DNA of 64,000 nt, taken from assembly GCA_963727445.1 (NCBI GenBank), contig CAVSGI010000015.1:320001-384000 (forward strand), written 5' to 3'. The position numbers and the translations under genes were made by a program. This document shows, piece after piece, positions 37,526 through 58,590 of this stretch. Each line of letters starts with the position of its first letter. The first letter of the stretch is position 1. The notes under the pieces are model-generated. The model saw only the letters and a program-made list of their open reading frames with translations. It was not told where the DNA came from and searched no databases. This DNA comes from an uncultured delta proteobacterium (GTDB lineage: Bacteria > Myxococcota_A > Polyangia > Polyangiales > B10-G4).

Positions 37526-38758
37526 ATGCGTGAAGCCGTTCTCTCTGGGGAGATCACGGATGAGGGGGTCATCATGCTCCTCGCCGAGATCGAGGAGCGC
37601 CGAACGAGCGGTGTCCTGCATTTCGAGGCGGGAGACGTCAGCGGCGACATCGAGCTCGTCGCCGGCCAGCTGGCCCTCGAGCAGCCGTCGATGGACGACG
37701 GGCGTGACCCGGTCGAGGTGCTCCTCTCGCTCAGGGAGGGATCCTACGAGCTCTTTCAGCGCCTCCCAGCCCTGGCCGTCTCGAAGGGCGACGAGCAGGC
37801 GCGTGAGGGGAGCCTCGACGTCCACGTCCCGGCCGACCTCATGAACTACTGCGAGACGGCGGGGCTCACGGGCAAGCTCCGCCTCGAGCAGGACGGCAAG
37901 AGCGCCGAGGCGATCTACGACCGAGGTGAGCTCAAGGCCATCCGCGTCGACGGCACCGCGGATGACGACCTGCACGAGGTCTTCGGCTGGAGCGAGGGGC
38001 ACTTCGAGATCACCGCCTTCACCATCGCGCCGAAGCTCGACGTCGACGAGCTCGAAGAGGTGCAGGAGCAGCAGGAGGAGGAAGAGGAGGATCCGCTCGA
38101 GCGCGAGCCGACCATCCGCTTCACCCGTCGCCGCAAGCAGGATACGAGCGAGATCTTCCTCCGTTCTGTGGAGGTCGCGCTCACCGACATCCTCACCGAG
38201 CGCGAGAAGCGGCGCGGTCCCGACAAGCGCACCAGCCCGCCCGCGGCGATGCGCAAGGTGCGGGAGAGCTCGATCCCGGGCGTGGAGAAGGTGGTCCGGA
38301 TCCACGCGACGAAGAAGCGCAAGCGCCAGCCGACGGTCCGGATCGTCTACGCCAGCAATCGCGAACCCGGCGAGGCACTGGGCACGACGCGCCACGTGGC
38401 CAAGGGAGGAAGCGAGAGCAGCGTCGACGTCGTCCTGCCGGAGGCGTCGCCAGACAGGGTACCCGCCGTCGAAGCGGCGAAGCGAAAGGGATCAGAGACG
38501 GCCAAGAAGAAGAAAAAGAAGGGTGGGGGCGGTCCGAAGAAGAAGGTGCGGAAGAAGAAGGAGAGCGCTCAGGAGATGAAGGTCATGACCGACGACACCG
38601 AGAAGGTGCGTCGTGAAAGGAGTGACCCGCCGGAAAAGGAGCGCGCCCCCCGCCCCAGCGCCAAGAGGACGCTCGAGACCCTCGGGTGGGTCGCGGCGGT
38701 CTTCCTGCTCCTGGTGATCAGCCTCTTCATTCTGGCCCGGCTTCCGCCGCTGGGCTGA
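37526..38758 (+). CDS. DUF4388-like domain protein with acidic and basic tracts and a C-terminal TM helix
   Basis: Two PatA/DUF4388-like repeats (TGKLRL...GEL...FGWSEGHF), poly-E, poly-K, terminal hydrophobic helix. Confidence 0.7.
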   Translation: MREAVLSGEITDEGVIMLLAEIEERRTSGVLHFEAGDVSGDIELVAGQLALEQPSMDDGRDPVEVLLSLREGSYELFQRLPALAVSKGDEQAREGSLDVHVPADLMNYCETAGLTGKLRLEQDGKSAEAIYDRGELKAIRVDGTADDDLHEVFGWSEGHFEITAFTIAPKLDVDELEEVQEQQEEEEEDPLEREPTIRFTRRRKQDTSEIFLRSVEVALTDILTEREKRRGPDKRTSPPAAMRKVRESSIPGVEKVVRIHATKKRKRQPTVRIVYASNREPGEALGTTRHVAKGGSESSVDVVLPEASPDRVPAVEAAKRKGSETAKKKKKKGGGGPKKKVRKKKESAQEMKVMTDDTEKVRRERSDPPEKERAPRPSAKRTLETLGWVAAVFLLLVISLFILARLPPLG

Positions 38759-38802
38759 GAAACTCGACCTCCCTCGCGCCACGCCCTGCTAGGGTTCGCC
38801 CC

Positions 38803-40536
38803 GTGCAGGCGCGGGTAGCCCATCTCGCGCTCTTCCTGGGGGCGCTGGCACTGCCATGGGTCGCGGCTGCGCAAGACGGTGGCGCGCCGGCGGCGCCCGA
38901 TGCGGGCGTGGCTTCGGACGAGCAGACCCCGGGCGAGGGCGACGGGCCGGCCGATGGGGGCAGCGGAGAGCCAGGCGACGCGGAGCGCTCGCGGGAGTAC
39001 GTGCCCGTCTGGGACCGCGCGCCCGAAGGCCAAGGCGAAGCTGAGGAGCCGACCACCGGCGGGCACGACGACGACGATGCAGACGATGCGCAGTCGGAGG
39101 GTGCGGCCGAGGAGTCCGCCATCGCCGGCGAGGAGGCCCTCGAGAGCCTGCCGACGATCCGTTACGAGCTCGAGCGCATCGAGATCCGCGGCAACGACAA
39201 GACCGCCGACTTCGTCGTGCTGCGCTATGTGCCCTTCGCCCCCGGCGACGAGCTCGACGTCGACGACCCCCGCATCGAGGCGCTCCGCTATCGGCTCCTC
39301 GGAACCGGCTACTTCGACACCGTCGACCTCTCCCTGACCCGCGGGTCGCGGCGAGGCCGGGTCGTGCTGGTGATCACCGTCACCGAGCGGAACACGATCC
39401 TCGTCGAGAAGCTCCAGCTCGGCATCTCCCGCGGCGTCGAGAACACCAGCGACGTCAACCCCGAGCTCCTCCCCTACCTCGGCCTCACCCTGGCCGAGAC
39501 CAACCTCCTCGGGACGGGCATCTCTCTGTCCTTGAGCGGTCTGGTCTCGGAGCGCCAGCAGGGCGTTCGACTCCGCTTCAACGATCCCACCTTCCTCGGC
39601 TCGCGCTTCAGCCTCGGTCTCGCCGGCCTCTTCAACAACGCCCGCGAATTCTTCGGCAACGAGGACGTGCGGGTCGTTCCGCGCTGTCCGGCGCCGCCCA
39701 CCCCCATGAGCGAATGCCCAGTGGCGCACGCCGTCGTGTTCTACCGGCGTTACGGGGTCTCCCTCGGCTCGGGCTACGACGTCGGCAGCGGGCTCTACAT
39801 CACGCTCGATTGGCAGCCGGAGATCGTCGACGTCCTGAGCCGACCCGACGCCGCGAGCAGCGCCCGCGGCACCACCACGGAGCCCATCGACTTCTCGATC
39901 CGCGATGGGACCAGCTTCCTCTCCACGCTCCGCCTCGGCATCCACTACGACAATCGCGACGACCCCGCGATGCCGAACCGCGGCTCGCTGGTGCACCTGC
40001 AGATGGACGGCTCGAGCCCGATCCTCGGCAGCGACTACAACTTCCTGAAGGTCTATGGCCTGGTCCGTCACTACATCCCGATGCCCTGGGGACATGGGCA
40101 CACGCTGCGTCTCGGCCTCTTCGGCGGGGTGCTCTTCGGCGACGCGCCCTTCTTCTTCAAGTTCTATCTCGCGGACCTCACGGACCTGATCCCCTCGCGC
40201 ATCCTCGAGATGAACGTCGACGATCGCGGGCCCCCGAACCTCCTCGGCACCTCGATCGCCCAGATGCGCGGGCAGGAGCTCGCCGGGCGCGTGGACTTCG
40301 AATACAGCCTGCCGATCTATCAGGGCCACGGGGGCCTTCGCGGGATCTACGGCTACTTCGGGGGCGGTCTCTACACACTGGCCGACCGCCGTGACCTCGC
40401 CCTGGGCATCCCGGGTTACGAGGGCGCGCAGAAGATCCCCATCGACCTCACCTTCGACTTCGGCTTCCGCATCGACACCTCGGTGGGGATGTTCCAGGTC
40501 GGCTTCTCCTCGCTGCTGGGGTTCTTGGAGCTCTGA
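38803..40536 (+). CDS. Omp85 (BamA/TamA) family outer-membrane protein with one POTRA domain
   Basis: Signal peptide, acidic linker, IEIRGNDKT...LLGTGYF..V POTRA, ETNLLGTG, YDNRDD..P.RG. Confidence 0.8.
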   Translation: MQARVAHLALFLGALALPWVAAAQDGGAPAAPDAGVASDEQTPGEGDGPADGGSGEPGDAERSREYVPVWDRAPEGQGEAEEPTTGGHDDDDADDAQSEGAAEESAIAGEEALESLPTIRYELERIEIRGNDKTADFVVLRYVPFAPGDELDVDDPRIEALRYRLLGTGYFDTVDLSLTRGSRRGRVVLVITVTERNTILVEKLQLGISRGVENTSDVNPELLPYLGLTLAETNLLGTGISLSLSGLVSERQQGVRLRFNDPTFLGSRFSLGLAGLFNNAREFFGNEDVRVVPRCPAPPTPMSECPVAHAVVFYRRYGVSLGSGYDVGSGLYITLDWQPEIVDVLSRPDAASSARGTTTEPIDFSIRDGTSFLSTLRLGIHYDNRDDPAMPNRGSLVHLQMDGSSPILGSDYNFLKVYGLVRHYIPMPWGHGHTLRLGLFGGVLFGDAPFFFKFYLADLTDLIPSRILEMNVDDRGPPNLLGTSIAQMRGQELAGRVDFEYSLPIYQGHGGLRGIYGYFGGGLYTLADRRDLALGIPGYEGAQKIPIDLTFDFGFRIDTSVGMFQVGFSSLLGFLEL

Positions 40537-41183
40537 TGCGGCGCGGGCTCTTCATTCTCGGGCTGTCCGTCGCCTCGCTCCTCGCGGGCGCGCCGCCCGC
40601 GTCGGCACAGGAGGAGGTCCCGTCGCGCCGCCTCGGCGTCTCCTGGGATGAGGGCGCCCCCCGCCTCACCTTCAACGCGCGCGACCTCGTGAACCGAGAG
40701 ACGCAGGACAAGCTCGAGAGCGGCCTGCCTCAGACCGTCGCCATGCGCATCTATGCCTATCGCGACGGGGACTCGGACCCGCTCGCGATCACCGTGCGCA
40801 CCTGCCGCGTGGTCTACGACCTTTGGGAAGAGGTCTATCGCGTGCAGGTCCAGACCGCGCGCCGGGATCGCACCTACACCGAGCGGAACATCGACGGGGT
40901 CCTCGAGCGCTGCGTGGTGGTGAGGCGCGGGCGTGTCGGCCGCGCCGCCGACTACCGACGGGTCCACGGGCGGCGCGTCTACTTCGCCGCGCTCTTCGAG
41001 CTCAACCCCATCTCGACCGACGACGTCGAGCGGATCCGGCGGTGGCTCGCACGGCCGAGCGGCGGGCGCGTCGAGAGCGAGGCCTTCTTCGGCTCCTTCG
41101 TGAGCCTCTTCGTGAACCGGCGGATCGGCGACGCCGAGCGCATCCGGCGCTTCCGCTCGCAGACTGTGCGGGTGCCGCGATGA
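40536..41183 (+). CDS. DUF4390-like exported protein
   Basis: Signal peptide; KLESGLP...VVYDLWEEVYRV; lies directly upstream of an NtrY-like kinase. Confidence 0.6.
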   Translation: MRRGLFILGLSVASLLAGAPPASAQEEVPSRRLGVSWDEGAPRLTFNARDLVNRETQDKLESGLPQTVAMRIYAYRDGDSDPLAITVRTCRVVYDLWEEVYRVQVQTARRDRTYTERNIDGVLERCVVVRRGRVGRAADYRRVHGRRVYFAALFELNPISTDDVERIRRWLARPSGGRVESEAFFGSFVSLFVNRRIGDAERIRRFRSQTVRVPR

Positions 41184-42685
41184 GGATGACCCGCTTCGAG
41201 CGGAAGATCATCGCCGCCATCCTGGCGGTGGCGCTCCTGCCCTTCTTCGGCACCATCGCCCTCGGCTATGTGGGCTTCCGCGAGGCCTATCAGGTCGGCG
41301 TGAACCCGCGGGTCGAGGCCCAGCTCGAGAGCGCGCTGTCCATCTACCGCGCCCACTTCGTGGCCCTCCGCGAGGGCGCCGAGCGTACGGCGGACGCGAT
41401 CGCCTACGACCGTCGCCTCTCGGAGGCCCTGGCGACGGGGGACCGCGACGAGCTCCGGGCGTGGGTGGGCGGCGAGCTCGAACGCTACGACGACGTCGCC
41501 CGGATCGAGATCCGCGGCGCGGACGAGGTGCTCGCCAGTGAAGCGAAGGACGCGCTCCTCGACGAAGAGCGCTACCGGCACCTCTCGCTCACGCGGGACA
41601 TCGAGCCCGCGCCGGGACCTGCGCCCCTGATCGTGGACGTGACCGTGGCGACCGAGGCCGAGCCCTTCATCGAGTACCAGCGGGCGGGCGAGGTGGCGGA
41701 GGTCTACTCCCGGCTCGAGGAGGGGAGCGCGGAGGTGTCGCTCTTCTATCTCGCCGTCTACGTCGGATTCCTTCTGAGCGTGATGGTGGTGGCGGTGGCG
41801 GTGGGGGTGGTCGCCTCGCGGCGGGTCACCGGGCGCGTCGCGGATCTCGCGGCGGCCACCGAGCGGGTCGGCGCCGGCGATCTCGACGTGGTGGTGCCGA
41901 CCGATGTGAACGACGAGGTCGGCGAGCTCACGCGCGCCTTCAACGAGATGGTCCGTGATCTGCGCGAGTCACGGGACCGCATCGAGTACCTGCAGCGGAT
42001 CGGTGCGTGGCAGGACTTCGCCCGGCGCCTCGCGCACGAGATCAAGAACCCGCTCACGCCGATTCAGCTCGCGGCCCAGGAGGTGGCGCGGGCCTATCGG
42101 GGTGACGACCCGGCCTACGGGGCGAAGGTGGAGGAGGCCCGCTCCATCATCGAAGAGGAGGTGGCGACACTGCGGCGCCTGGTGGGGGAGTTCAGCGAGT
42201 TCGCGAAGCTGCCCCGCGCGGAGCTCTCCGAGGCGGACCTGGGTGATTTCCTCACGGATACGGAGCGGTCGCTGCCCGCCGCGCTCGCCGCGCCAGAGGG
42301 GGTGGAGGTGCGCTTCGAGGAGGTGGCGGAGCCGCTGTCGGTGCGGGTCGATGCCATGATGCTCAAGCGCTGCGTGGACAATCTGGTGCTGAACGCGGTG
42401 GAGGCGCTCGCGGAGGAGGGACAGGGCGGGGAGGTCGTGGTGCGCGGGCTCAGAGATGGGTCGAGGGCGGTGATCGAGGTCGCCGACGACGGCCCGGGGA
42501 TCGACGGAGACCCTGCGCGGATCTTCGACCCCTACTACACGACGAAGTCCGAGGGCACGGGGCTCGGGCTCGCGATCGTGAAGAAGGTCGTCCTCGAGCA
42601 CGGCGGCGCGATCGGGGTGACGAGGAACGAGGGGGGTGGATCGGTCTTCCGCATCTCCCTTCCCCTCACGGAGAAGGGGTCTTGA
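41180..42685 (+). CDS. NtrY-like HAMP sensor histidine kinase
   Basis: Two TM segments, HAMP (DEVGELTRAFNEM), AWQDFARRLAHEIKNPLTPIQL, DDGPG, GTGLGLAI. Confidence 0.9.
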   Translation: MRMTRFERKIIAAILAVALLPFFGTIALGYVGFREAYQVGVNPRVEAQLESALSIYRAHFVALREGAERTADAIAYDRRLSEALATGDRDELRAWVGGELERYDDVARIEIRGADEVLASEAKDALLDEERYRHLSLTRDIEPAPGPAPLIVDVTVATEAEPFIEYQRAGEVAEVYSRLEEGSAEVSLFYLAVYVGFLLSVMVVAVAVGVVASRRVTGRVADLAAATERVGAGDLDVVVPTDVNDEVGELTRAFNEMVRDLRESRDRIEYLQRIGAWQDFARRLAHEIKNPLTPIQLAAQEVARAYRGDDPAYGAKVEEARSIIEEEVATLRRLVGEFSEFAKLPRAELSEADLGDFLTDTERSLPAALAAPEGVEVRFEEVAEPLSVRVDAMMLKRCVDNLVLNAVEALAEEGQGGEVVVRGLRDGSRAVIEVADDGPGIDGDPARIFDPYYTTKSEGTGLGLAIVKKVVLEHGGAIGVTRNEGGGSVFRISLPLTEKGS

Positions 42686-43221
42686 GCAAAGAGTCGAAGA
42701 CGCCGTGGCTGATCGCGGTGGCGCTGCCTGCGGCCGTCTTGCTCTTCGCCGGGCTCAGCCTGTGGCTCACGGGGCGACCGGCGGCCCCCGACTTCACCCT
42801 CCCGATCGTCGCGGGGGAAGGCGCGGCCCATGGCGATCGCATCCGGCTCTCCGAGCTCCGCGGTCGGGTCGTGCTCCTCGACTTCTGGGCCAGCTGGTGC
42901 GGGCCCTGTCGCCAGTCGATCCCGATCATCAACGACGTCGCCGCCGACTACGAGGCGCAGGGTCTGACCGTCCTCGGGATCAACGTCGAGCCCGAGCTGA
43001 GCGCCGACGAGCTGAACGGCGCGCACGCGACCTTCGGCGCGACCTTCCCCTCACTCCAGGACTCGGCGCGGGATCTGGAACGCGCCTATGGGATCGACAG
43101 CCTGCCCACCCTGGTCGTCATCGACCGCTCGGGTGTCATTCGCGACGCACGGCCAGGCGTCCCTGACGAGGGGCGACTGCGCCGTTTGGTGGAGGAGCTG
43201 GTCGCGGAGAGTCAGCAGTGA
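42682..43221 (+). CDS. TlpA family thiol:disulfide oxidoreductase
   Basis: N-terminal TM, APDFTL, LLDFWASWCGPC, LPTLVVID. Confidence 0.9.
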   Translation: MSKESKTPWLIAVALPAAVLLFAGLSLWLTGRPAAPDFTLPIVAGEGAAHGDRIRLSELRGRVVLLDFWASWCGPCRQSIPIINDVAADYEAQGLTVLGINVEPELSADELNGAHATFGATFPSLQDSARDLERAYGIDSLPTLVVIDRSGVIRDARPGVPDEGRLRRLVEELVAESQQ

Positions 43222-43232
43222 TAGGCCAGTGA

Positions 43233-43288
43233 TATCAGATGGTTAGGGGGTGTGAAGGTTGACACCAACCCCTCGGGGCCGTTATGCT
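43233..43288 (+). promoter_or_regulatory. Sigma70-type promoter of the Fic gene with an upstream IHF-like site
   Basis: TTGACA(43259)-N18-TATGCT(43283); TATCAGATGGTTA (43233-43245) fits WATCAR-N4-TTR. Confidence 0.55.
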
Positions 43289-43331
43289 CCGCCGCCCCAA
43301 CCGACCTTTGTCATTCGGCTAGGAAAACTCC

Positions 43332-44117
43332 TTGGTTCAAATTCTCCGCGGCGGAAGTCTCGAGGAGCGGGTGACCCGCTTACACGAGGTCACTTCGAAG
43401 GCCCCCAAGTCACTTCACGACCAGTTCGCGGAGCGCCTCGACATCACGTGGATCTACCACGACAGCGCGCTCGAAGGGATCGTCTACAGCTTCGACGAGC
43501 TCAAGGCAGCCATCGACGATCGGGTCGTCAGTGATACCTCTCTGATACCTGTGTACGACGAGATCCGTCAGCACAAGGCGGCGATCGATCTCGTTCGCGA
43601 GCTCGCGGAGAAGAAGCGCCTCAGCATCAACCTCGAGGTCATCAAGAAGATCTACGTGACCCTCATCCCGGAGGAGGGTGAGGGCAAGGGCGCGCCGAAG
43701 TACCGCAAGGACATGCCGCTTCATCGGCTCTACTTCCACGACATCGCGCAGCCCGAGAAGATCCGCCACCAGACGCGCCAGCTGGTGCAGTGGATGAACG
43801 CCGCGGAGACCAAGCGGTCGACCCACTCGGTGCGACTCGCGGCGAAGGCCCACTACAAGCTCCTGCACATCTACCCCTTCGCGAAGCACAGCGGGAAGGT
43901 CGCGCGCCTGATGATGAACCTCATCCTGATGCGTCAGGGCTATCCCCCGGCGATCATCCACGCGACCGAGCGCCAGCGTTACTACGACGCGCTCAAGACC
44001 TCCGAGGACGCGACGGCCAAGCTCGTCACCGACGCCCTCGCCTCCTCGGTGGAGAGTACGATCCACTTCTACGAGGAGTCGCTCGGGCTCAAGTCGACGG
44101 TTTCGCTGGCCGACTAG
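43332..44117 (+). CDS. Fic family protein with degenerate active-site motif
   Basis: WIYHDSALEG inhibitory-type motif; LLHIYPFAKHSGKVARLMMN instead of HPFxDGNGRxxR; start uncertain. Confidence 0.8.
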   Translation: MVQILRGGSLEERVTRLHEVTSKAPKSLHDQFAERLDITWIYHDSALEGIVYSFDELKAAIDDRVVSDTSLIPVYDEIRQHKAAIDLVRELAEKKRLSINLEVIKKIYVTLIPEEGEGKGAPKYRKDMPLHRLYFHDIAQPEKIRHQTRQLVQWMNAAETKRSTHSVRLAAKAHYKLLHIYPFAKHSGKVARLMMNLILMRQGYPPAIIHATERQRYYDALKTSEDATAKLVTDALASSVESTIHFYEESLGLKSTVSLAD

Positions 44118-44144: not shown

Positions 44145-44858
44145 TTACGCGTCTCCGCCCGGCAACAGGTCGTACATCTCCGGGCCCATGACCTCGCCGT
44201 GCAGGGCGATGCGGTCGCCAGCCTCGAAGTCGATCACCACCAGCGTCTTTCCGCCGGGGCCTCCGAGGATCACGTATTCGGCGCGCGCGGTGGTCAGGGG
44301 GAGATGCTCTCCCTCGGTGCGAACGTCCGCGTGACCGCGGCGGCGCAGCTTGAGCCGCAAGCCCTCGATGGGCAGCTCGGTGGGGACCGCGCCGCCCGGC
44401 ACCTCGTCGGTGTGGGCGAGGAAGGCGACGTCGCGCGCCTCGGCGTCGAGCTGGGCGATGTGGGTCGCCCGCGCCGCGCCGGGGGCCGCGAAGAGGCTCA
44501 ACGCGAAACCCTCTTCGTCGAGATACACCTCGCCGGCGAGCCAGAGCTCGGTGTCGGCGTAGAGGATCACGTCGCCTACGCGCAGGCCGCGGGGTGATTG
44601 CGGCCGCGCGCGCTTCTTCTCCTCGCCGGCCTCCGCTTCGCCCGAGGGCTCGGAGTCGCGATCCGTCTCATCGTCGTCCTTGGAGGTCTCGGCCTTCGCC
44701 GCCGACGCATCGGTCCCGTCGCCCCTCTCGAGCGCAGCTGCGGCCTCCCGACGCTTCGCGCGACGTATCGCGAGGGCGCCGAGGACGACGATCCCCGCAC
44801 CGACCGCTAGCTCGATGATCACCGTCAGGGCGTCTATCAAATCCCAGCCACGATTCAA
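44145..44858 (-). CDS. Hypothetical membrane-anchored protein
   Basis: N-terminal TM, charged linker, beta-rich C-terminus (LRVGDVILY). Confidence 0.6.
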   Translation of the reverse strand: MNRGWDLIDALTVIIELAVGAGIVVLGALAIRRAKRREAAAALERGDGTDASAAKAETSKDDDETDRDSEPSGEAEAGEEKKRARPQSPRGLRVGDVILYADTELWLAGEVYLDEEGFALSLFAAPGAARATHIAQLDAEARDVAFLAHTDEVPGGAVPTELPIEGLRLKLRRRGHADVRTEGEHLPLTTARAEYVILGGPGGKTLVVIDFEAGDRIALHGEVMGPEMYDLLPGGDA

Positions 44859-44895
44859 ATCACCGTCCGCCGGATGTGCTCTATCCTCCCGCGCG

Positions 44896-46686
44896 GTGCA
44901 GCGCCGTCCGAAGATCGTCCTCGTCTCCGCTCTCGCGGTCGTGGGGCTTCTGCTCTTCGGGCTCGCCCTCGCGCGCTACCGGACCTTTCACAACGAGACC
45001 TTCGATCTCGCGTTCTACGGGCGGATGGCCTGGGGACCGTGGCGCGGCATCTTCTGGGATCCGGTGGTCGGCGCCCACATGCTCGGGCTCCACGTCTCGC
45101 TGGTGATCCTGCCCCTCGGCGTCGCCAGTCTGATCGAGGGCGCGATCATCCCCTTTCTCCTGGCGGTGCAGGCGGCGGCGGTGGTGCTCGCCGCGATCCC
45201 CTTCGCGCGCATGGCCGAACGTCGCTTCGGGAGCTGGGGCGCCCTGGCGGGCGGGGCGGCCTGGCTCCTCTATCCGAACATCGGCCATGTCGCGACCTAC
45301 GAGTGGCATCCGGGGACCCTCGCCGTGCTTCCGCTGGCGTACGCCCTCGAGGCGCTCGACCGGCGCGCGGCCAAGCCCTTCCTCGTGAGCGCGCTCCTGG
45401 TCCTCGCGTGTCGCGAGGACCTCGGCCTCTGCCTCGCGCTCCTCGGCCTCCTCGCCTTTTGGGCCGACCCGGGCATGCGCCGCGTAGGCGCGATCCTCTC
45501 CGGCGTCTCCGTCCTCTACGTCGCGCTCTTCGCGCTGGTCCTCTTGCCGCGCCTCGGCCCCGAGACCGGCTCGGTGCATCTGCATTTCGGGAAGTGGGGC
45601 GACTCTCTGGGGGGCGCCGTCGTCGGCATGCTCACGCACCCCCGCGCGGTGCTCGAGCATCTCGCCGAGCCAGCGCGCCTGACGTATCTGCCGCGGCTGC
45701 TCCTGCCCCTCGCGGGCCTCTCGCTCCTGCGGCCGAAGTGGTTGATCCCGGCGCTGCCCTTCGTCGCCATCAACCTGATGAGCGAGTGGCCCACGACCAC
45801 CGATCTCGACAGCCACTACCAGACGATCCTCCTGCCCTTCCTCGTCGCGGCCGCCATCGACGGGGCGGCGCGCGCGAGCGAGCGGGTCGATCGCCGCGTC
45901 GTCCTCTTCGCCCTGGTGGGCGCCGCGACCGTGGGCCACGCGGCGCTCGGTGGAACGCCCCTCGCCGTCGACTTCGATGGGTCGAAGTTCACCACCGACG
46001 CGCGAACCCTCGCCGCGCGCGCGGCGCTGGCCGAGATCCCCGAGGACGAGAGCGTTCAGGCGCCTTACGCCCTGATGCCGCACCTGGTGGAGCGCGAGCT
46101 GGTGAGCGCCGCCCCGCCCCCCGACAAGAACTACGCCTTCGTGGTCCTCGATGCCTGGCATCGCCAGCGTTACGCCCAGGACGAGAGCCTGCTTCGAACC
46201 TCCGAGGAGCCCACCGTTCGCGATTGGCTCGCCCGCGACGACTACGGGTTGGTCCTGTCGCAGGCGCCGTACCTCGTCTTCGAGCGAGGTGCCGATCCGC
46301 GCGCGCTCCCTCGCGAGCGCGGTATCCTGCGCAGGGGCGGTGAGGCGGCCGACGCGCGCGGGGTCCGCCTCACCGCGTGTCTCTATCTGGTCGGCTGGTC
46401 GCGCGCGGAGCACGAGCTCCATCTCGACATGCGCGCGGTCAGCGAATGCGGGGCCGACATGGCGATCCGGATCGGCCGGGGTGAGCGACCTTCTCGGGTG
46501 GACCTTCTCTTCGGAGGGCTCCTGTCGCCAGCGCATCTCGAGCCAGGGGATCGCCTGCGCTCCGCGCATCCCCTGGACGACGCCGAGGCGCGCGCCTTCG
46601 ACGCGGGGGAGCTCCGAGTGGGCCTGTTACGCTCGAGCGGCGCCCGCCCCTCCCACGGCGATCCGGTCTCGGTGCCGCTGCGCTGA
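44896..46686 (+). CDS. DUF2079 family polytopic membrane protein
   Basis: FDLAFY, LGLHVS, YEWHP, LACREDL, SHYQ; many TM segments. Confidence 0.75.
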   Translation: MQRRPKIVLVSALAVVGLLLFGLALARYRTFHNETFDLAFYGRMAWGPWRGIFWDPVVGAHMLGLHVSLVILPLGVASLIEGAIIPFLLAVQAAAVVLAAIPFARMAERRFGSWGALAGGAAWLLYPNIGHVATYEWHPGTLAVLPLAYALEALDRRAAKPFLVSALLVLACREDLGLCLALLGLLAFWADPGMRRVGAILSGVSVLYVALFALVLLPRLGPETGSVHLHFGKWGDSLGGAVVGMLTHPRAVLEHLAEPARLTYLPRLLLPLAGLSLLRPKWLIPALPFVAINLMSEWPTTTDLDSHYQTILLPFLVAAAIDGAARASERVDRRVVLFALVGAATVGHAALGGTPLAVDFDGSKFTTDARTLAARAALAEIPEDESVQAPYALMPHLVERELVSAAPPPDKNYAFVVLDAWHRQRYAQDESLLRTSEEPTVRDWLARDDYGLVLSQAPYLVFERGADPRALPRERGILRRGGEAADARGVRLTACLYLVGWSRAEHELHLDMRAVSECGADMAIRIGRGERPSRVDLLFGGLLSPAHLEPGDRLRSAHPLDDAEARAFDAGELRVGLLRSSGARPSHGDPVSVPLR

Positions 46687-46696
46687 CTGGAACCCT

Positions 46697-47053: not shown

Positions 47054-47110
47054 GGGGCGGATCCAGCCTACGTTGGCGATGTGCAGCGCCGAAGCGCTAC
47101 GCGCGCAACC

Positions 47111-47416: not shown

Positions 47417-47568
47417 GACCCAACTCCTCGTCTCGACCCGGAACAACGCAGGCTCCATGCCACCTGCACCTACATGGGTCAAGCGGGAGATCATTGTGGA
47501 AAAGCACCAGCAAGGTGGCGGATCGATCAGCCAGCACTGACAAGCGCGTCGTGGATCTGTGAGCTGAC

Positions 47569-48699
47569 TCAGAGGCGAGCGCGTTCGCCGAACTGCCGCT
47601 CCATCTCGGCGGCGTGCTCGAGGACGTGATCGCGGCGCTCGAAGAGGTCGTCGAGCTGCCTATCGCTCAGGAACGGCGCGAGGGGATCCTGGGCCATGCG
47701 CCGCTCGAGGCGCGCGCGGTCGAGCCGACGGAGACGCCCGAGCGTGCTCCACCGGAAGCGCTGAAGGGCGTGGAGGCGCGCGTCCATGAGCGGCACGCGC
47801 GCGCCGCGAGGACCCGCCGTGAAGCCAGCGCCGTTGTCGAGATAGATCAGCGGGCCGGCCTCGCCGCGGGTGCGCACGTTCTGGAAGTTGCCACCCCAGC
47901 GGTCGACGTTCGTGGTCAGGTAGTCGAAGACGATCATGTCGCTGAGCTCGGCGGCGCGGTCTTCGGTGTCGGGGGTGTCGGCGGCGATCTCGCCTTCGGT
48001 CTGCACGTGGGCGTCGCGCCAGTCGCGCGGGCGCTGGTAGGGCGAGATGAGCAGCGAGCTCTCGTTGCGCACCCACTTGTCCCACCGTCGGCCGGCGTTC
48101 AGTCGCTCGAGTCGCTCGGGGATCCACCAGATGAAGGCGCCGCGCACGGTGCCGTCCTCCTGGACGATCACCTCGTCCACGCGCTCGTCGCCCATCGCCG
48201 CCTGACGGAGCGGCTCCCATTCGATCACGCGACCGATGGTCGGCGGGACCCGGCCGAGACCGAGCTCTCGGTCGAGGTAGTAGGCGCCGAGCTCGGAGTA
48301 GAAATGCGCAGCCGAGAAGGTCTGCTCCGGCTTGTAGTAGCCGACGGTTCCGTCGGCGAGGGTGACCTTGAAGGCGAGAGAGCGTCCGCCGTGGCCGCGC
48401 TCGACTTCCACGATCTCCTCGTTGGCGAGGGCGTCGCGCATGTCGTGATCGAGCTCGCCCAGGAAGCGGCTCCGGCGATCGACCTCGACAGGCGTGGGCG
48501 ATTCCGCCGGCTCTGGGGTGGGCGCTTCGGCTTCGGCGGGCTCCTGCTGGGCGCCGGGATCGTCGGGGGCGACGGTCGGCGCGGGCTCATGCGCGCGCAT
48601 GACCGGCGGGTTCGGGGGGGCGGAAGCAGAAGCCTGATCGCAGGCCGAGAGCAGGGGGGCCGCCGCCACCGACAGGACGAGGAGGAGGTGTCTACACAT
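47569..48699 (-). CDS. Lipoprotein with Fam20C/Four-jointed-like atypical kinase domain
   Basis: LLSAC lipobox, Pro/Glu linker, GGRSLAFKV...YYKP, SELGAYYLDRELGLGRVPPTIGR, DMIVFDYLTTNVDRW, LIYLDNGAGF. Confidence 0.75.
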   Translation of the reverse strand: MCRHLLLVLSVAAAPLLSACDQASASAPPNPPVMRAHEPAPTVAPDDPGAQQEPAEAEAPTPEPAESPTPVEVDRRSRFLGELDHDMRDALANEEIVEVERGHGGRSLAFKVTLADGTVGYYKPEQTFSAAHFYSELGAYYLDRELGLGRVPPTIGRVIEWEPLRQAAMGDERVDEVIVQEDGTVRGAFIWWIPERLERLNAGRRWDKWVRNESSLLISPYQRPRDWRDAHVQTEGEIAADTPDTEDRAAELSDMIVFDYLTTNVDRWGGNFQNVRTRGEAGPLIYLDNGAGFTAGPRGARVPLMDARLHALQRFRWSTLGRLRRLDRARLERRMAQDPLAPFLSDRQLDDLFERRDHVLEHAAEMERQFGERARL

Positions 48700-48842
48700 G
48701 CGTCTTTCCTTTGTCGCTCGGATCAGCGAATCGGGCCAGAAACGTGTCCTGGCGCACGCGATCGTGTCGCCGCTGGAACACGCGATGGCGTCGATTGCCA
48801 GGGCCTGAGCGTGGGTCCGGCGGTTGCAGCAGCGGAGGCTCG

Positions 48843-49931
48843 ATGCGCGGGACGCTGCTCTTTCTTCTGTTCACGATCGCCTTGTCGTCGGGGCGCGCGC
48901 TCGCGCAGGAGGCGCACTCGGACGTCTGGTCCGAGCCGAATCCGGGCGTTCGATATCTCCACCGCACGACGGACCTGCCGTGCACCATCCATGCCCTGGT
49001 CGTGGACCTCTCGGCGGACGGCGTGCGGATCGAAGCGACGCCCTACGAGGAACGCTGGCAGTCCGTGGGGAGCTGGGCGCGTGAGACGGACGCCGTCGCC
49101 GCGGTGAACGGCGGGTTCTGGAGCGGGTTCGCGCGTCCCGATGGCATCGCGGCCGGCGGCGGCGAGCCGTGGCCCGGCGCCGAGGACGACGCCGACCACG
49201 GCTTCTTTGCGGTGGATGATTCGGGTCGCGCGTTCATCAGCCCGCCCGAGGTGGTGGAGGAAGAGATCCCATCACGGGTGCGCGGCGCCGTCTCCGGCCG
49301 GCCGATGATCGTGCGCGGCGGCGAGGTCGACACGCTGTCCCTCGACACCTTCGAGCACGCGCGCAATCGGCACCCCCGGACCGCGGTGGGCGTGTCGCGG
49401 GATGGGCGCACCGTGTACTTCGTGGTCGCCGACGGGCGGCGCGCCCACAGCCGCGGGCAGAACCTCTACGAGCTCGCGGAGCTCATGCGGGAGCTCGGTG
49501 CCTACGACGCGATCAACCTCGACGGCGGCGGGTCGAGCACGATGTACGTCGAGTCCCTCGGGGGCGTCGTGAACGCGCCGAGCGGCGGGCGATGGGAGTC
49601 GGCGTTGGGGCTCGGCGCCGACGAGGAGGTGGCGCGAGAGCGGGTGGCGCGAGACGGGATTCAGGAGAGCTGGGTGCGCGGTGTCGAGCGCGAGGTCATG
49701 AATCACGTCGGCGTGTTCGCGCCGCGCCCGGAGTCGATGGACGTGGCTTCGGCCAACGACACGCTGCCGCGACCGGACGACGTTAGAGCGCCCTCGGCCC
49801 CGCCACCGCGCGCGCCGCTCTTCCGTCTCGGCACGGCGCGCGAGGTTCTCTATCCACTGCTCTGGGGATTCGTCTGCGCCGTCCCGCTCTTCCTCGCCCT
49901 CGCGATCTGGAGACGTCGCCGTCGCGCGTGA
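48843..49931 (+). CDS. Phosphodiester glycosidase (NAGPA/DUF2233) family exported protein with C-terminal TM anchor
   Basis: Signal peptide, AAVNGGF, RHPRTAVG, VVADGR, AINLDGGGSSTM, hydrophobic helix plus RRRRR tail. Confidence 0.85.
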   Translation: MRGTLLFLLFTIALSSGRALAQEAHSDVWSEPNPGVRYLHRTTDLPCTIHALVVDLSADGVRIEATPYEERWQSVGSWARETDAVAAVNGGFWSGFARPDGIAAGGGEPWPGAEDDADHGFFAVDDSGRAFISPPEVVEEEIPSRVRGAVSGRPMIVRGGEVDTLSLDTFEHARNRHPRTAVGVSRDGRTVYFVVADGRRAHSRGQNLYELAELMRELGAYDAINLDGGGSSTMYVESLGGVVNAPSGGRWESALGLGADEEVARERVARDGIQESWVRGVEREVMNHVGVFAPRPESMDVASANDTLPRPDDVRAPSAPPPRAPLFRLGTAREVLYPLLWGFVCAVPLFLALAIWRRRRRA

Positions 49932-53108: not shown

Positions 53109-53214
53109 CTGTCTCCCTCCGTGAGCCGCGCATCGTTCGCCCGCGCCGGCTTCACTTACCCCCGAAGTGCACGACACCCCCTCGGGTGGTCAAAAAAGCG
53201 GCGCGCGGCGCGCG

Positions 53215-56200
53215 TCAGTGAAAGTCCCGAGATGGGGGCGCCGCCTGGAGGTCGAGCTCCGGGAGGAAGAGCGAGTCGGCCACCAGGTGGGTCACGCCCT
53301 CGCCGACCTGGAGCTTGCCGCGTATGCCGAGGAGCTTCGCCGTCTTGCCGATGAGCTCGTGCTTTTCGAAGACGCGGCGCCACACCACGACGTTCACGAA
53401 GCCCGTCTCGTCCTCCATGGTGAAGAAGACGACGCCGCTCGCCGTGCCGGGGCGTTGGCGGCAGAATCACCATGCCCACGTAGGTGAGGCGGTGGCCGTC
53501 GGGGAGCTGGCCGACGGTGCGCGCGTCGGGGATGCCCTTTCCCCGCAGGGCGTCGCGATGCTGCGACATGGGGTGGCCGCGGGTGGAGTGAGCGCTCGCG
53601 CGATAGTCCCAGCTCACTGCCTCGGCCGCGCCCAGCGCCGGAAACGCCACGCGCCGCTTCGCGGGCGTCAGCGGCAGCGGGTCTCGCGCGTGCGGCGCGA
53701 GCCCCCGCACCTGCCACATCGTCTCGCGCCGCCCCTCGCCGAAGGCGTCGAGGGCGCCAGCCTCGCCGAGGCGCACCAGCGCGCGCTCCGGCAGGCGCGT
53801 CCCGCGGACGAAATCCTCGAGGCTCTCCCAGCGCGGGCCCGGCCCCAGCCAGGGCTCGAGCGCCTCCTTTTCGCGGGTCCCGAAACCCTTCACGTAGCGA
53901 AGCCCCATCCTGAGAGCGAGCCCGCCGCGCGAGGCCTCGGACGGCTCGAGCCCGCAGTCCCAGCCCGAGCGCGTCACGTCCACCGGCCGCACCTCGACCC
54001 CCGCCCGCTGCGCGTCTTCGACCAGGGTCGAGGGCGCGTAGAAGCCCATTGGCTGGGCGTCCAACATGGCGCAGGCGAAGGCCGCCGGATGGTGGCGTTT
54101 GAGCCACGCCGTCACGTAGGAAAGGAGCGCGAAGCTCGCTGCGTGGCTCTCGGGGAAGCCGTATTCCCCGAAGCCCTCGATCTGCGAAAAGACCCGCTCG
54201 GCGAAGGCCGCGTCGACGCCCTTTTCGATCATCCGCGAGACCAGGCGTTCGCGGTGCTGCTCGATGCGGCCCTTGCTGCGCCAGGCCGCCATGTCGCGGC
54301 GCAGCTGATCCGCCTCACCCGGCGTGTAGTCGCCGACGATGACGGCGAGCTTCATCACCTGCTCCTGGAAGATCGGGACGCCCAGGGTCTTCTTCAGCAC
54401 CGGCTCGAGGGTCGGGTGGGGATAGACCACCGGCTCCTCGCCCTTTCGCCGCCGGAGATAGGGATGGACCATGTCCCCCTGGATCGGCCCTGGCCGCACG
54501 ATCGCCACTTCGATCACAAGGTCGTAGAAAGTCCGCGGCTGAAGGCGCGGCAGCATCGCCATCTGCGCGCGGCTCTCGATCTGAAAGACGCCGACAGTGT
54601 CGCCCTCGGAGCACATCGCGTAGGTCGCGGGGTCCTCGGCGGGCACGGTCGCGATGCCGAGGTCGAGATCGTCGTGGGTGCGCAGCAGGTCGAAGCAGCG
54701 GTGGATGGCCGTGAGGCAGCCGAGCCCGAGGAGATCGATCTTGAACAGGCCCAGATCCTCGACGTCCTGTTTGTCCCACTGGATGACCGTGCGGTCCTCC
54801 ATGGTGGCCGGCTCGATGGGCACCAGCGTGTCGACGGGCTCAGCGCCGAGGAGAAAGCCGCCTGGATGGATCGACAAGTGGCGGGGGAAGTCGAGGAGCT
54901 CGGCGGTGAGGGCGAGGAGGTGCCGGGTCGCGGGCGCGCTCACGTCGAGCCCCGCCGAGGAGAGGGTCTCGAGGTCGACCGTGTCGCTGTGGTAGCTGAG
55001 CAGGCGCGCTACGCCGTCGACGTCGGTCTGGGGGATGCCGAGCACCTTGCCCACGTCGCGCACCGCCGATCGGGCGCGATACCGGATCACGTTCGCCACC
55101 ATCGCGGCGTGGCGCCGGCCGTAGCGTCGATACACCCACTGGATGACCTCCTCGCGGCGCTCGTGTTCGATGTCGAGGTCGATGTCCGGAGGCTCGGCGC
55201 GCTCGCGGCTGAGGAAGCGCTCGAAGAGCAGGTCCATGCGCACCGGGTCGATGGCGGTGATGCCGAGGCAGAAGCACACCGCGCTGTTCGCGGCGCTGCC
55301 GCGGCCCTGGCAGAGGATCTGCTCGCGGCGGCAGTGCTCGACGATCTCGTACATCGTCAGGAAGTAGCCGCCGTATTCGAGGGAATCGATCACCTCGAGC
55401 TCTCGCTCGAGCTGCGCCGCCACCTTTGTGGGCACGCCGCCCGGATAGCGCTTCTGCGCGCCCTCGAAGGTCAGGTGACGCAGCCAATCGGACTCAGCGT
55501 AGCCCTGGGGTGGCGGCTCGGCGGGGTAGCGATAGTCGAGGTGGTCGAGGCGGAAGGCGCAGCGCTCGCCGATCTCGAGGGTGCGATCGACGGCGGCCTG
55601 GTCGTCGCGAAAGAGCGCCCGCATGGCCGCGACCGAGGCGATGGCGTGCTCGGCGTTCTGGCGGATGCGCGTGCCGGCGTCCGCGAGGCGCACCCCGGCG
55701 CGGATGCAAGCGACCACGTCCGCCACCGCCCTGCGCCGCCGCGCGTGATAGAGCACCTCCTGCCCGGCCACGATGGGAAGATTGTGAAGGCGGGCGGCGC
55801 CGCGGAGCGCCTGCTCCACCGGGATCTCCTCGGCGCAGAGGTGTCGGGTGACGAGCGTGAAGGCATCCTCGCCGAAGGACTCGGCCGCGAGGGGGATCAG
55901 GGCGACGTCCGGACAGAGCGCCACCAGCCCACCGCTGCGCCCTGCATCGCGCACCTCCGCGGGCCGGCTCAGGCTCTCGCCCTTTTCGGAGCGAAGCCGG
56001 CCGAGGCTCAAGAGCCGGCAGAGCGCGCCATAGCCCGCGCGGTCTTTCGCGAGCAGGACCAGGCGTGCGGGCGGGGCACCGGGCTCGCCCACCGAGACCT
56101 GCGCGCCCGCCATCGTATCGAGGCCGATCTCCTTCGCCTTCATCCAGGCGCGGACCAATCCGTACACGCCATCGCGGTCGGTGATGGCGATCGCGGGAAG

Positions 56201-56308
56201 GCCGAGGGCATGCGCCGCGGTGACCAGCTCCTCGGGGTGGCTCGCGCCTTCGAGGAAGGAGTAGTTGCTCTTCACCCAGAGCGGCACATAGGGGTGGGCG
56301 TTCGTCAA
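53215..56308 (-). CDS. dnaE2: Error-prone DNA polymerase DnaE2/ImuC; apparent frameshift at ~53465
   Basis: SNYSFLEGASHPEEL, GRGSAANS, PPDIDLDIEH, FQIESRAQM, YGFPESHAASFA; RQRPGTASG...EDETG...SRDFH C-terminus in the shifted frame. Confidence 0.93.
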
Positions 56309-57822
56309 TCGACCATCCCGTGGAGAAACCACCGCTTGCGCGGCCGGTCCCAATAGAGCCAAAGCAGCTCGCCGCTCGCGGTCTCGGCGTAGTAGTAGTC
56401 GCGCTCCACCTTGCGCACCCACCAGCCGCCGCTGATGCGGTAGGGCCCGAAGAGACGGAGCACGGCGTCGCCGTCGTCGAGCATCGGGCCGGCGCTCGGA
56501 TCCGAGGCGTCGCGGCTGCTGAGCGGGCGCGGCTTCGAAAGTACCCGGCGCATCAACGGCGGCGCGCTGTCGCCGGTGGGCTCGCGGGCGGCTTCATCCG
56601 TCTTCGAAAGACGCAGGCGATCGGCGGGCTCCCAGGCGAAACGCGCCTCGGGCAGGTGCGCGTCGCGGAGGCGTGGCCGCGTGACCGAGCCCTCCCCGAA
56701 GGCCGCGCGCACCCGCGCCAGGGCACGCTCGCCTGCGGCGAGATCGCGTCGCGGGCCGAGGCGGAACATGGCGAGCTGATCGCCCTCGGGGCGCGCCGTC
56801 TCGGCGACGAGGGTCAGGCGCTCGACGGCGGCGGGGAGCGTCGTGTCGCCGAGGCGGAGGCGTACGAGGTCGAGCAGGAGCATGGCGTCGCGGGTCGGCG
56901 TGGCGGGCTCGATGCGCTCGGCGTGCGTGTGGCCATCTTCGAGGTGGAGCTTCAGATGGAGCGCGCCGAGGACCAGGGCGCGGGAGCGGACGTTCGTCAG
57001 GAGCTCGTGCAGGGCGCCCTTGATGCCGAAGAGGAGGCGTGCGTGGTCGTCGTCGGGGGGATCGATCTCGAGGCTGACCTCGATGGGCTCGTCGAAGGCG
57101 CGCGGCTGGATCGGGAGCTGGGCCTCCTCGGCGGCGGCGGCCTGCAGACGCCCGGTCTCCTCGCCGAAACGCGACTTCAGCTCGCCCGCGGGCAGGCGCA
57201 GGAGATCACCGATGGTCCGCACCGAGAGCGCGGCGAGATCATCCCTGAGACGCGGCGACAGGCCGAGGGCGGCGAGCGGGACGGCCTCGAGGCGGCGGCG
57301 GGTCGCCCGTGGATCGGCCAGGACCCGGGCGCCGCCCGTGGTGCGCGCGATGGCGAAGGCGGCGAAGCGGCCGTGGGCGATGACCACCGAGGCGACGAAG
57401 CCGCGGCCCTTGAGGTAGCCCTGCACCGCGTCGGCCCAGGTGCGCGGATCGCCGTAGATGCGACCGAGCCCGGAGGGATCGACGTAGAACGTGCCGGGGC
57501 GCTCGAGGTCGGGCTCGACCCGCGGCGAGAAGGTCTGCAGCGCGATCACCAGCTCCTCGACGATGCGGGTGATGCGCTCCGCAGAGATAGGGCCAGCGCG
57601 CAGGGCGGGGACCAGGTTCCGCGCGGCGCCGTAGCGCATGCCAGTGCTCAGGTGCAGGCGCGACGCCTTGGCGTCGACGTGGGTCAGTGGCGCTTCGGGG
57701 CGATCCTCGGCGACCACGGCGAGGGGGTGACCGACGAAGTCGGGCCGATCTCGGCGAAGGATCTGCAGCGGCAGATCCGGAAGGTCGACGCACGCGAAGA
57801 GAGCACCGCCCCTGTCACCCAC
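56305..57822 (-). CDS. imuB: ImuB, inactive Y-family polymerase
   Basis: Y-family-like N-terminus without catalytic motifs; GPYRISGGWW, ERDYYYA, WFLHG C-terminus; between imuA and dnaE2. Confidence 0.88.
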   Translation of the reverse strand: MGDRGGALFACVDLPDLPLQILRRDRPDFVGHPLAVVAEDRPEAPLTHVDAKASRLHLSTGMRYGAARNLVPALRAGPISAERITRIVEELVIALQTFSPRVEPDLERPGTFYVDPSGLGRIYGDPRTWADAVQGYLKGRGFVASVVIAHGRFAAFAIARTTGGARVLADPRATRRRLEAVPLAALGLSPRLRDDLAALSVRTIGDLLRLPAGELKSRFGEETGRLQAAAAEEAQLPIQPRAFDEPIEVSLEIDPPDDDHARLLFGIKGALHELLTNVRSRALVLGALHLKLHLEDGHTHAERIEPATPTRDAMLLLDLVRLRLGDTTLPAAVERLTLVAETARPEGDQLAMFRLGPRRDLAAGERALARVRAAFGEGSVTRPRLRDAHLPEARFAWEPADRLRLSKTDEAAREPTGDSAPPLMRRVLSKPRPLSSRDASDPSAGPMLDDGDAVLRLFGPYRISGGWWVRKVERDYYYAETASGELLWLYWDRPRKRWFLHGMVD

Positions 57823-57837
57823 GATCCCCTCACCCGA

Positions 57838-58467
57838 TCAGGGGAGCCCCCACGGCGCTCGCCGCCGCTCCGCGCTCAGCGCCCCTCCCCCGAGCTTGTC
57901 TTTCATGATCCGCTGCTCGACGGCGAAGCGGCCGGGCGCCCGTCGCTCGTGGCGCGGGGCGATCCGAAGCGACACCATCGCCCCGAGCGAAGGGTCGCCC
58001 TCGTCGCGATCGCTGAGGAGGATCACGCGTGATCCGTGCTTGCGCGCCATCGCTGAGAGGCGGCCCTGCCATGCGTCCCCGCGAGGAATGCCCGCGGTGA
58101 GATCGACGACCACCAAACCGAACGCGCCGGAGCGCAGGAGCATCTCGGCTGCCTTCGAGATCCCATGCGCCCCGGCACGCCGAGGAATTCGAATGACGAT
58201 CAGGGCATCGAGATCGATCCCCGAGTCCGCGAGGTCCGGCGGATAGAGGGAGCCGTCCTCGAGCTGCACCCACACCACCGGCTCGTCGGCGCGCTGCGCC
58301 CTCATCACGAGGGAGACCGCCAGCGTGGTGCGCCCGGAGGAACGCCTTCCGCTCAGCTCCGAGAGTCGGCCGGGATCGACGCGCTCCGCCAGCGACTTCG
58401 GCGGCGCGAGTGGGGCCTCACGCCTTGGCTTTGCGCTCGCAGAAGAGAGTGAAACGACGGCCGCCAC
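57838..58467 (-). CDS. imuA: ImuA, RecA-like protein
   Basis: GRLSELSG..SSGRTTL, YPPDLADSGIDLDAL, LLRSGAFGLVVVD; GTG 58467 chosen from the promoter position. Confidence 0.85.
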   Translation of the reverse strand: MAAVVSLSSASAKPRREAPLAPPKSLAERVDPGRLSELSGRRSSGRTTLAVSLVMRAQRADEPVVWVQLEDGSLYPPDLADSGIDLDALIVIRIPRRAGAHGISKAAEMLLRSGAFGLVVVDLTAGIPRGDAWQGRLSAMARKHGSRVILLSDRDEGDPSLGAMVSLRIAPRHERRAPGRFAVEQRIMKDKLGGGALSAERRRAPWGLP

Positions 58468-58474
58468 GTCACCC

Positions 58475-58502
58475 AATATACTGAACCCATGTCCAGTGTC
58501 AA
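58475..58502 (-). promoter_or_regulatory. imuABC promoter with a LexA-like (SOS) box in the spacer
   Basis: Minus strand TTGACA-CTGGACATGGGTTCAG-TATATT; the spacer is an imperfect palindrome resembling the Myxococcus LexA box CTRHAMRYBYGTTCAGS. Confidence 0.8.
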
Positions 58503-58590
58503 GGCGGTATCGATCGGGATCACTTTCGACACTCGCATGGGCCATGGCGCACGTCGAGGACGGGTGGGGCCAGGACCGACTGACAGGCGC

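Follow-up and report, generated by a model that had tools for sequence, protein, structure and literature searches.

A predicted lipoprotein of Polyangiales belongs to a bacterial branch of the Fam20 kinase family

The window analysed here, a stretch of 64,000 nucleotides, carries an intact gene, P0001, whose features and neighbors are collected in Table 1. The gene has a GC content of 0.70, like its surroundings, and a purine run, AAAGGAAAG, ends 4 nt 5' of its ATG; a scan of 46600-49000 found neither a promoter nor a terminator. At the N-terminus of the protein, MCRH is followed by LLLVLSVAAAPLL and then by the lipobox L17-S18-A19-C20, at which lipidation is predicted. The residues behind it are unconserved and form no secondary structure in the structure model (pLDDT about 46-81). 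An earlier note, made from the DNA letters, had described a lipobox and a flexible linker ahead of a series of kinase motifs. Both are there (LSA-C20 and a 54-residue, low-confidence Pro/Ala/Glu stretch), and every one of the quoted motifs (GGRSLAFKV, YYKP, SELGAYYLDRELGLGRVPPTIGR, DMIVFDYLTTNVDRW and LIYLDNGAGF) is found in the ORF.

Table 1. Features of the P0001 gene and of its surroundings, in window coordinates
Feature	Position	Strand	Remarks
Kinase gene P0001	47569..48699	-	intact ORF, 376 aa, ATG start
Predicted lipoprotein signal peptide	48640..48699	-	residues 1-20, lipobox LSA-C20, Asp at +2
Tether, Pro/Ala/Glu-rich	48478..48639	-	residues 21-74 (54 residues), by composition
Fam20-fold kinase domain	47572..48477	-	residues 75-376, zero Cys
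Gly-rich loop GGRSLAF to YYKP strand	48328..48390	-	GGRSLAFKV 104-112, YYKP 121-124
Helix SELGAYYLDRELGLGRVPPTIGR	48229..48297	-	residues 135-157, contains E136
Catalytic segment DMIVFDYLTTNVDRW	47896..47940	-	residues 254-268, contains D259 and D266
Metal-binding LIYLDNGAGF	47821..47850	-	residues 284-293, contains D288
NAGPA-family phosphodiester glycosidase	48843..49931	+	PF09992 E 2e-38; PDB NAGPA matches; divergent neighbor, 143 nt away
DUF2079 membrane protein	44755..46686	+	PF09852 E 1e-44
Small ORF, 127 aa	47111..47494	-	no Pfam match; downstream of the kinase, same strand
Omp85/POTRA protein, unknown exported protein, HAMP histidine kinase, TlpA thioredoxin, Fic protein	38686..44117	+	conserved near the kinase across the order
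imuA/imuB/dnaE2-type mutagenesis cassette	53156..58545	-	RecA-like, IMS, error-prone polymerase; ordinary

Sequence and fold alike place P0001 in a bacterial branch of the Fam20 kinases. It matches the Pfam family Fam20C (PF06702) at 39.6 bits (E 6e-10; cut-off 26.8) and FAM198 at 10.6 bits, and the HipA, PI3/PI4 kinase and CotH families of Pfam give no match to it at E 1. When the PDB was searched with P0001 by phmmer, five Fam20 chains were returned (E 6e-8 to 9e-7), no unrelated chain came in below 0.5, and a profile built from 90 family sequences reached Fam20C at E 2e-41 and PI4KII at 0.02. A structure model of P0001 built from 39 relatives (pLDDT 84) was then compared with known folds. 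Foldseek placed Fam20C, A and B on top (E 5e-15 to 4e-13; 5yh0 at 5e-15) and PI4KII next (2e-6), and VIA-align against 48,161 chains gave Z scores of 24.2 for hydra Fam20 (5xom; 270 residues superposed, rmsd 3.2, 23% identity) and of 24.1 and 23.3 for Fam20C. The non-Fam20 folds followed with 16.5 for PI4KII, 14.7 for CtkA, 13.5 for actin-fragmin kinase and 11.6 for both CotH and HipA; PI4KII, CtkA, actin-fragmin kinase and HipA have the superfamily fold in common with P0001 but all lie well below Fam20. The earlier note had proposed a Fam20C/Four-jointed-type kinase, and the Fam20 part of this identity is borne out by Pfam, phmmer, the profile, Foldseek and VIA-align alike. The structural comparison with Fam20, CotH, HipA and PI4K that it had suggested ranks Fam20 first, far above PI4KII. 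Since the best structural match is Fam20, and neither a PI3/4K nor HipA, this comparison leaves the proposed identity standing. The collinear motifs of human Fam20C that were cited in that note can be seen when the family profile is aligned with PDB 5yh3_C by HMMER.

The catalytic center of the bacterial proteins is conserved. In an alignment of 90 diverse family rows, which are 24-49% identical to P0001, K123 is kept in 85, E136 in 86, D259 in 90, D266 in 88, R267 in 90, N274 in 89, D288 in 90 and R355 in 90. The catalytic and metal-binding Asp residues anticipated from the letters are thus kept, and the catalytic Lys and Glu are conserved family-wide as well. By sequence alignment, K123 and E136 match Fam20C K285 and E311; these two labels, like K271 and E306 below, follow the usual Fam20C numbering, transferred to the 5yh3_C alignment. 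D259, D266, D288 and R355 match D451, D458, D478 and R549 in the same way, and all six Fam20C residues have identical counterparts in P0001. The positions were counted along the profile-to-5yh3_C alignment and anchored on D451 and R549, the Raine positions according to the accessible part of Worby 2021 (PMC7948968).

Other features of the animal enzymes are missing. The four disulfides of animal Fam20B/C are absent: residues 75-376 have zero Cys, as do 127 of 193 relatives. In animal Fam20B/C the acid of the ion pair sits five residues before the alpha-C Glu (hydra D152, human E306, worm E213); in the sequence alignment it faces Ala131 of P0001, where the loop is 13 residues shorter. This column varies (S in 33, A in 24, T in 15 and E in 7 of 90 rows), and the Lys at the K271 position of Fam20C has no conserved counterpart in the bacterial family. 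In Fam20A, the change of the ion-pair acid to Gln is part of what makes the protein a pseudokinase, as stated in the accessible part of Zhang 2018 (PMC5865150). The apparent loss of this acid, in a column that the alignment gives as unconserved, is a caution that was overlooked in the earlier note. The Glu aligned with the canonical ion-pair Glu is kept in the bacterial proteins, from which we infer that they use it.

Comparison with characterized kinases sets P0001 apart from each of them. Fam20B (hydra Fam20, 5xom/5xoo; PMC5865150) shares with P0001 the top fold match, the catalytic core and a predicted extracytoplasmic site, and the dimer inserts of Fam20C are absent from both. However, the Gal-Xyl pocket of Fam20B is replaced in P0001 (T114/Q115 by R106/S107, H301 by W268, K321 by A291), its Y148-Y151 loop is missing, Y253 aligns near W209/V210, D152 has no acidic counterpart, and P0001 has a lipoprotein anchor and no disulfides. 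Fam20C, the Golgi casein kinase (5yh0, 5yh3, 4kqa), is the best match of both the profile and Foldseek (E 2e-41 and 5e-15), yet its E306 and K271 are not kept in P0001, which also has neither the 13-residue loop that bears F299/F300 nor the Cys-rich insert of the N-lobe that serves dimer activation. The dimer motifs of Fam20C (the D-F-F-Y-F-S-D loop and the F-x-S-P insert) are alignment gaps in P0001, the Arg that follows DNG is Ala291, and R408 aligns with Asp207; the S-x-E preference of Fam20C is not predicted for P0001. With the Fam20B pocket, the ion-pair acid, the disulfides and the Fam20C dimer inserts all lost, P0001 is neither Fam20B nor Fam20C, and because the substrate residues of these two enzymes are not kept, its acceptor cannot be read from the sequence. 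The pseudokinase Fam20A (5wrr) resembles P0001 in its fold and in also missing the ion-pair acid, but unlike Fam20A, P0001 gives no sign of a dedicated activator role and its other catalytic residues are near-invariant. The spore-coat kinase CotH (5jda) is bacterial, belongs to the same broad group and acts on cell-surface proteins (PMC7821199, accessible part). It is far more distant from P0001 (Z 11.6, 10% identity, no Pfam CotH match), which, unlike CotH, would be a lipoprotein of a Gram-negative non-endospore former.

An N-terminal export signal is a family trait. Signals were scored with a hydropathy rule in place of SignalP, and 34 of 227 full-domain proteins, being too short at the N-terminus, were left out. 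A hydrophobic N-terminal segment was found in 166 of the remaining 193 full-domain relatives versus 13 of 243 cytoplasmic neighbor enzymes, and 73 of the 193 fit a strict lipobox rule. Close relatives of P0001 divide into lipoproteins and proteins with Cys-free, cleavable-type signals, and members from other orders have a membrane anchor. The type of signal thus varies (lipobox, cleavable-type, membrane anchor or multi-pass fusion) while export is kept throughout the family. The residue after the lipobox Cys bears on membrane destination by the +2 rule of E. coli, and in a hand-picked alignment 20 of 37 rows have D or E there, which by this rule suggests an inner membrane location.

The family is near-core in the order, with members in 39 of 41 genomes (those of 2.7-3.3 Mb included), and common in the class, where it was found in 62 of 81 genomes (61 in the main search, plus G210). 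A strict first look at 122 other genomes of the phylum found it in at least 17, of which 15 belong to family f32. Even genomes as small as 1.8-3.3 Mb retain it (the 1.8 Mb case is G123). There are usually one or two copies per genome, with expansions to 5-6 in G016 and G230; the genome of P0001 has a second copy (C21) of 27% identity with intact catalytic residues. None of 14 control genomes has a match to the Pfam Fam20C family. A profile search returned 681 unlabelled representatives at E 1e-10; the named relatives of P0001 are Myxococcota, mostly Polyangiales, and databases already give them the Pfam label. Among viral contigs, none of 74 pattern matches was a relative, a plasmid search gave no match, and a first metagenome scan with P0272 as query found nothing. 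A weak search with A2, which covered proteins of 834-2380 aa, found no longer relatives, although longer members are known in f32. In that family (L146-L155, from another class of the phylum), the Fam20-like domain lies C-terminal in long proteins, mostly of 840-1260 aa, which carry a CxxC..CxxC motif at the N-terminus and also contain an extended disordered stretch and a membrane segment. In one of its paralogue groups the catalytic residues are intact, and the other group is degenerate (D266 changed to E, D288 to H, or more degenerate still), possibly a kinase/pseudokinase pair that recalls Fam20C/Fam20A. Since the degenerate f32 paralogues have lost catalytic residues, they show how relaxed copies look, and the query clade keeps those residues.

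The published picture of Fam20 is an animal one. The family is described from sponge to mammals in Worby 2021 (PMC7948968), in the accessible part of which the word "bacteria" occurs once, in a reference title; it does not occur in that of Zhang 2018 (PMC5865150). Some Legionella families have been grouped with FAM20/CotH (Krysinska 2022, PMC9758233), with no mention of the myxobacterial branch in the accessible part of that paper. A literature search that mostly covered journals free of subscription found no paper on a bacterial Fam20 branch or on a periplasmic kinase with a transporter.

Most of the neighborhood of the kinase gene is an inherited gene block. At 80 loci of the order, which are dominated by one lineage, the genes near the kinase are aguA (70 loci), aguB (67), Fic (56), an ornithine-cyclodeaminase-like gene (47), TlpA (46), dnaE2 (36), DUF2079 (17), NAGPA (10) and NTT (8), with MFS-X at none. 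At the agu loci the kinase usually heads a same-strand run, and the ornithine-cyclodeaminase-like gene precedes it in 47 of the 80. The window has NAGPA, DUF2079, Fic and TlpA genes and no aguAB at the locus, and no aguA above the cut-off was found in the genome of P0001 (86% complete). This absence, together with the different neighbors seen in other orders, rules out aguAB as an obligatory partner of the kinase. The small 127-aa ORF is kept behind the kinase in close relatives (5 of 80 loci), and no immunity or secretion genes were seen among the kinase neighbors.

Two neighbors in the window are possible partners of the kinase: the NAGPA-family protein, which has a signal-like N-terminal segment and a hydrophobic C-terminal tail, and the DUF2079 protein, which has no sequence match in the PDB and which we take to be a GT-C-type glycosyltransferase. 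An exported phosphodiester glycosidase and a DUF2079 protein lean weakly toward glycan chemistry. A candidate protein substrate was noticed elsewhere in the order. A parvulin-like lipoprotein whose linker is very acidic is encoded near the kinase at 4 of the 80 loci (L117:6943-7509, L105:4077-4646, L110:8777-9391 and L083:7250-7882), and its linkers at L117 and L105 are rich in S-x-E. It is not adjacent to the kinase in the genome of P0001, where no clear candidate for an S-x-E-rich lipoprotein stood out among 649 lipoprotein-like ORFs.

Transporters are physically tied to three separate kinase clades. In family f65, from another order, the kinase is followed at 12-23 nt by a co-oriented NTT gene (ATP/ADP translocase family) in 6 of 6 genomes, which represent two genera; these operons were found after the transporter hypothesis, which had itself been prompted by the TLC/NTT neighbor in the order. 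An MFS gene, here called MFS-X, is present in 24 class genomes. Of these, 23 also have a kinase, and in 21, spread over ten families other than f65, the two genes share a strand and MFS-X lies 15-1595 nt downstream; the genome of P0001 has no MFS-X. Fusions of an MFS protein to the kinase occur in 6 protein clusters and 2 metagenome contigs/ORFs. In these the MFS part stands in front, the reverse of the operon order, so that read-through does not explain them. The fused MFS is ~30% identical to MFS-X, and an extra hydrophobic segment would put the kinase outside, a topology drawn independently of the fusion protein model (pLDDT 56, low confidence). In a quick tree, the query, f65, MFS-X operon and fusion clades are separate (SH-aLRT 96, 100, 100 and 99).

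The nearest NTT gene in the genome of P0001 (L145:6367-7755 on G000:C15), which the Pfam TLC search missed and a custom profile picked up, lies ~400 nt past the end of the window and 15.7 kb from the kinase. It encodes a single-domain protein, with a PLD-like gene before it and dppCB and a lytic transglycosylase after it. In the order, an NTT gene is found within 6 kb of the kinase at 8 of 80 loci and within 16 kb in G000, G005 and G023, and it is clearly distant in G014, G020, G022, G031, G037 and G039. Because this linkage is far below that of the housekeeping genes aguA (70 of 80) and Fic (56 of 80) and the genes are distant in six genomes, their nearness here may be inherited gene order. 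Of 18 selected kinase-bearing genomes, 14 gave no NTT match at E 1e-10, and 9 of these 14 are without MFS-X as well; in a looser search, 3 of 9 kinase-free genomes turned out to carry NTTs. Two broader patterns were considered and dropped: (i) mutual exclusion of NTT and MFS-X, as both are present in 8 of 81 class genomes, and (ii) co-occurrence of either transporter with the kinase (44 of 61 kinase-bearing versus 2 of 20 other genomes), which was set aside because related genomes are not independent, G210 proved to be kinase-positive and 3 of 9 kinase-free genomes have NTTs. Thus, the transporter-kinase link is a lead and not a rule; it is neither needed nor exclusive.

The linked NTTs are single-domain homologues of PF03219 (PDB 9j3j at E 3e-5). 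Against TIGR00769 they score 26 and 71 bits (cut-off 387), which makes them homologous to the characterized ATP/ADP translocases but places them outside that group, among NTTs with unknown substrate. Complex prediction for an f65 kinase and its operon NTT gave a score of 0.01 versus a mark of 0.32, which counts neither for nor against a complex. MFS-X resembles efflux pumps weakly and looks like a small-solute carrier. NTTs occur in free-living bacteria, with roles given as unknown in the accessible part of Major, Embley and Williams 2017 (PMC5381601). Characterized NTTs import nucleotides into parasites and plastids, and an export role in the service of an exported kinase is not described in that part.

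Several other arrangements of kinase and transporter genes were seen. At L183:1460-6869 (G193), a single NTT gene lies between two Fam20-like kinase genes, of which one is upstream and co-oriented and the other, of divergent sequence, converges from downstream. At L159-L182, which come from several further orders, the kinase and MFS-X are often separated by the gene of a membrane protein that has a CxxC motif at its N-terminus and HEAT repeats at its C-terminus; a TlpA thioredoxin gene is found upstream and rimO downstream. Three genomes of family f9 have a longer NTT-type gene at a distance of 7-14 kb from the kinase (L138:15468-18110, L139:13472-15532 and G079:C5:35981-37183). At L141-L143, from small-genome members of the order, a second class of single-domain NTT adjoins a presumably dksA-like gene, and in family f62 (L184, L194) the kinase itself adjoins such a gene. 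Fam20-like domains also stand behind multi-pass membrane regions other than MFS-X (L198:4198-6003 and L199:3642-5882).

We favor the reading, at a probability of roughly 0.55, that P0001 is an active, periplasm-facing, membrane-tethered kinase that acts on the cell's own envelope. The protein would, with high probability, be exported, lipidated at Cys20 and held on a flexible tether, most likely at the periplasmic face of the inner membrane. It would probably bind metal-ATP there and move the gamma-phosphate to a hydroxyl group, with the canonical alpha-C Glu136, instead of the Fam20-specific acid, predicted from the alignment to hold Lys123. The acceptor is somewhat likely to be part of the cell's own envelope, where a glycan or glycoconjugate would be slightly preferred over Ser/Thr of exported proteins because of the ancestral Fam20B-like chemistry and the glycosidase and DUF2079 neighbors. 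More tentatively, ATP might reach the periplasm via an inner-membrane exchanger, which could be the NTT in the genome of P0001 and in part of the other lineages, with an unrelated MFS perhaps taking this role elsewhere. The idea of an active periplasmic or surface kinase, first raised from the sequence letters, is favored by export signals and catalytic residues that are conserved family-wide, while activity and an ATP source are parts of it that we infer. Of the two targets named at that time, own envelope or prey, the former is favored and prey becomes the weaker option; the one or two copies are intact, vertically kept within conserved housekeeping blocks and retained even at genome sizes of 1.8-3.3 Mb, which speaks for a target in the envelope of the cell itself.

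There are several alternatives to this reading. P0001 could be a pseudokinase that, as a sensor or scaffold, binds ATP or ADP in the periplasm and transfers no phosphate, like Fam20A. Such a role would suit a protein that lacks both a conserved acid at E306/D152 and a Lys at K271, in a periplasm regarded as having no steady ATP pool. We nevertheless consider it unlikely, as N274 and the four catalytic positions hardly vary among rows that share only 24-49% identity with the query, and the query clade keeps both D266 and D288, which the degenerate f32 paralogues lose (to E/H). Equally unlikely is a kinase that acts on a small molecule or on the head group of a lipid, and whose linked transporter would move the substrate or product and not ATP. 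A polyamine or amino-acid derivative as acceptor would fit the loci with aguA (70 of 80) and aguB (67 of 80), the ornithine-cyclodeaminase-like gene that precedes in 47, and the small-solute look of MFS-X; an envelope lipid would fit PI4KII as the next fold after Fam20 (Z 16.5). However, the genome of P0001 has no aguAB at the locus and no aguA above the cut-off (at 86% completeness), the neighbors differ in other orders, and the 80 loci come mostly from one lineage.

Phosphorylation might also be directed outward, with an ecto-kinase that takes ATP from lysed prey or neighbors and modifies prey or matrix molecules. Myxobacteria are predators, two genomes (G016 and G230) have 5-6 copies, and, with many kinase-bearing genomes lacking a linked transporter, ATP from outside would solve the supply problem. 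This fits poorly with the low copy number (usually one or two per genome), with the stable gene blocks, in whose vicinity immunity or secretion genes were not seen, with the many members that have inner-membrane-type anchors or multi-pass fusions and with retention in reduced genomes, and we regard it as quite improbable. Recent transfer from an animal, or contamination, would leave the gene with no settled bacterial function. The characterized Fam20 proteins are animal ones, and the accessible part of the family's review treats it from sponge to mammals (PMC7948968), but this explanation is largely refuted and very improbable: the GC content of 0.70 matches the surroundings, the bacterial gene order is conserved, 62 of 81 class genomes have the family, its paralogue clades are deep, and the proteins have neither the disulfides nor the inserts of the animal enzymes.

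The Pfam label on these proteins was already known, the transporter link is not universal, and the kinase activity is a prediction from conserved residues. What is added is that Fam20, described as an animal secretory-pathway family, has a conserved, exported bacterial branch with intact catalytic residues. Its small, Cys-free domain makes it an easy model enzyme. The branch opens the question of ATP-dependent phosphorylation in the periplasm and of its ATP supply, and the adjacency and fusion of transporters hint, short of proof, at ATP being brought outside the cytoplasm for envelope phosphorylation. The operons and fusions name candidate ATP carriers and, if this is true, would give a function to the NTTs of free-living bacteria. 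It is a speculative step further that Polyangia might have a dedicated extracytoplasmic ATP-dependent phosphorylation, in which an inner-membrane NTT, or an MFS that in some cases is fused to the kinase, exports ATP and a Fam20-type kinase modifies envelope glycans or proteins; this would be a bacterial counterpart of Golgi-lumen phosphorylation and may be its source. The bacterial branch also bears on the origin of the Fam20 kinases.
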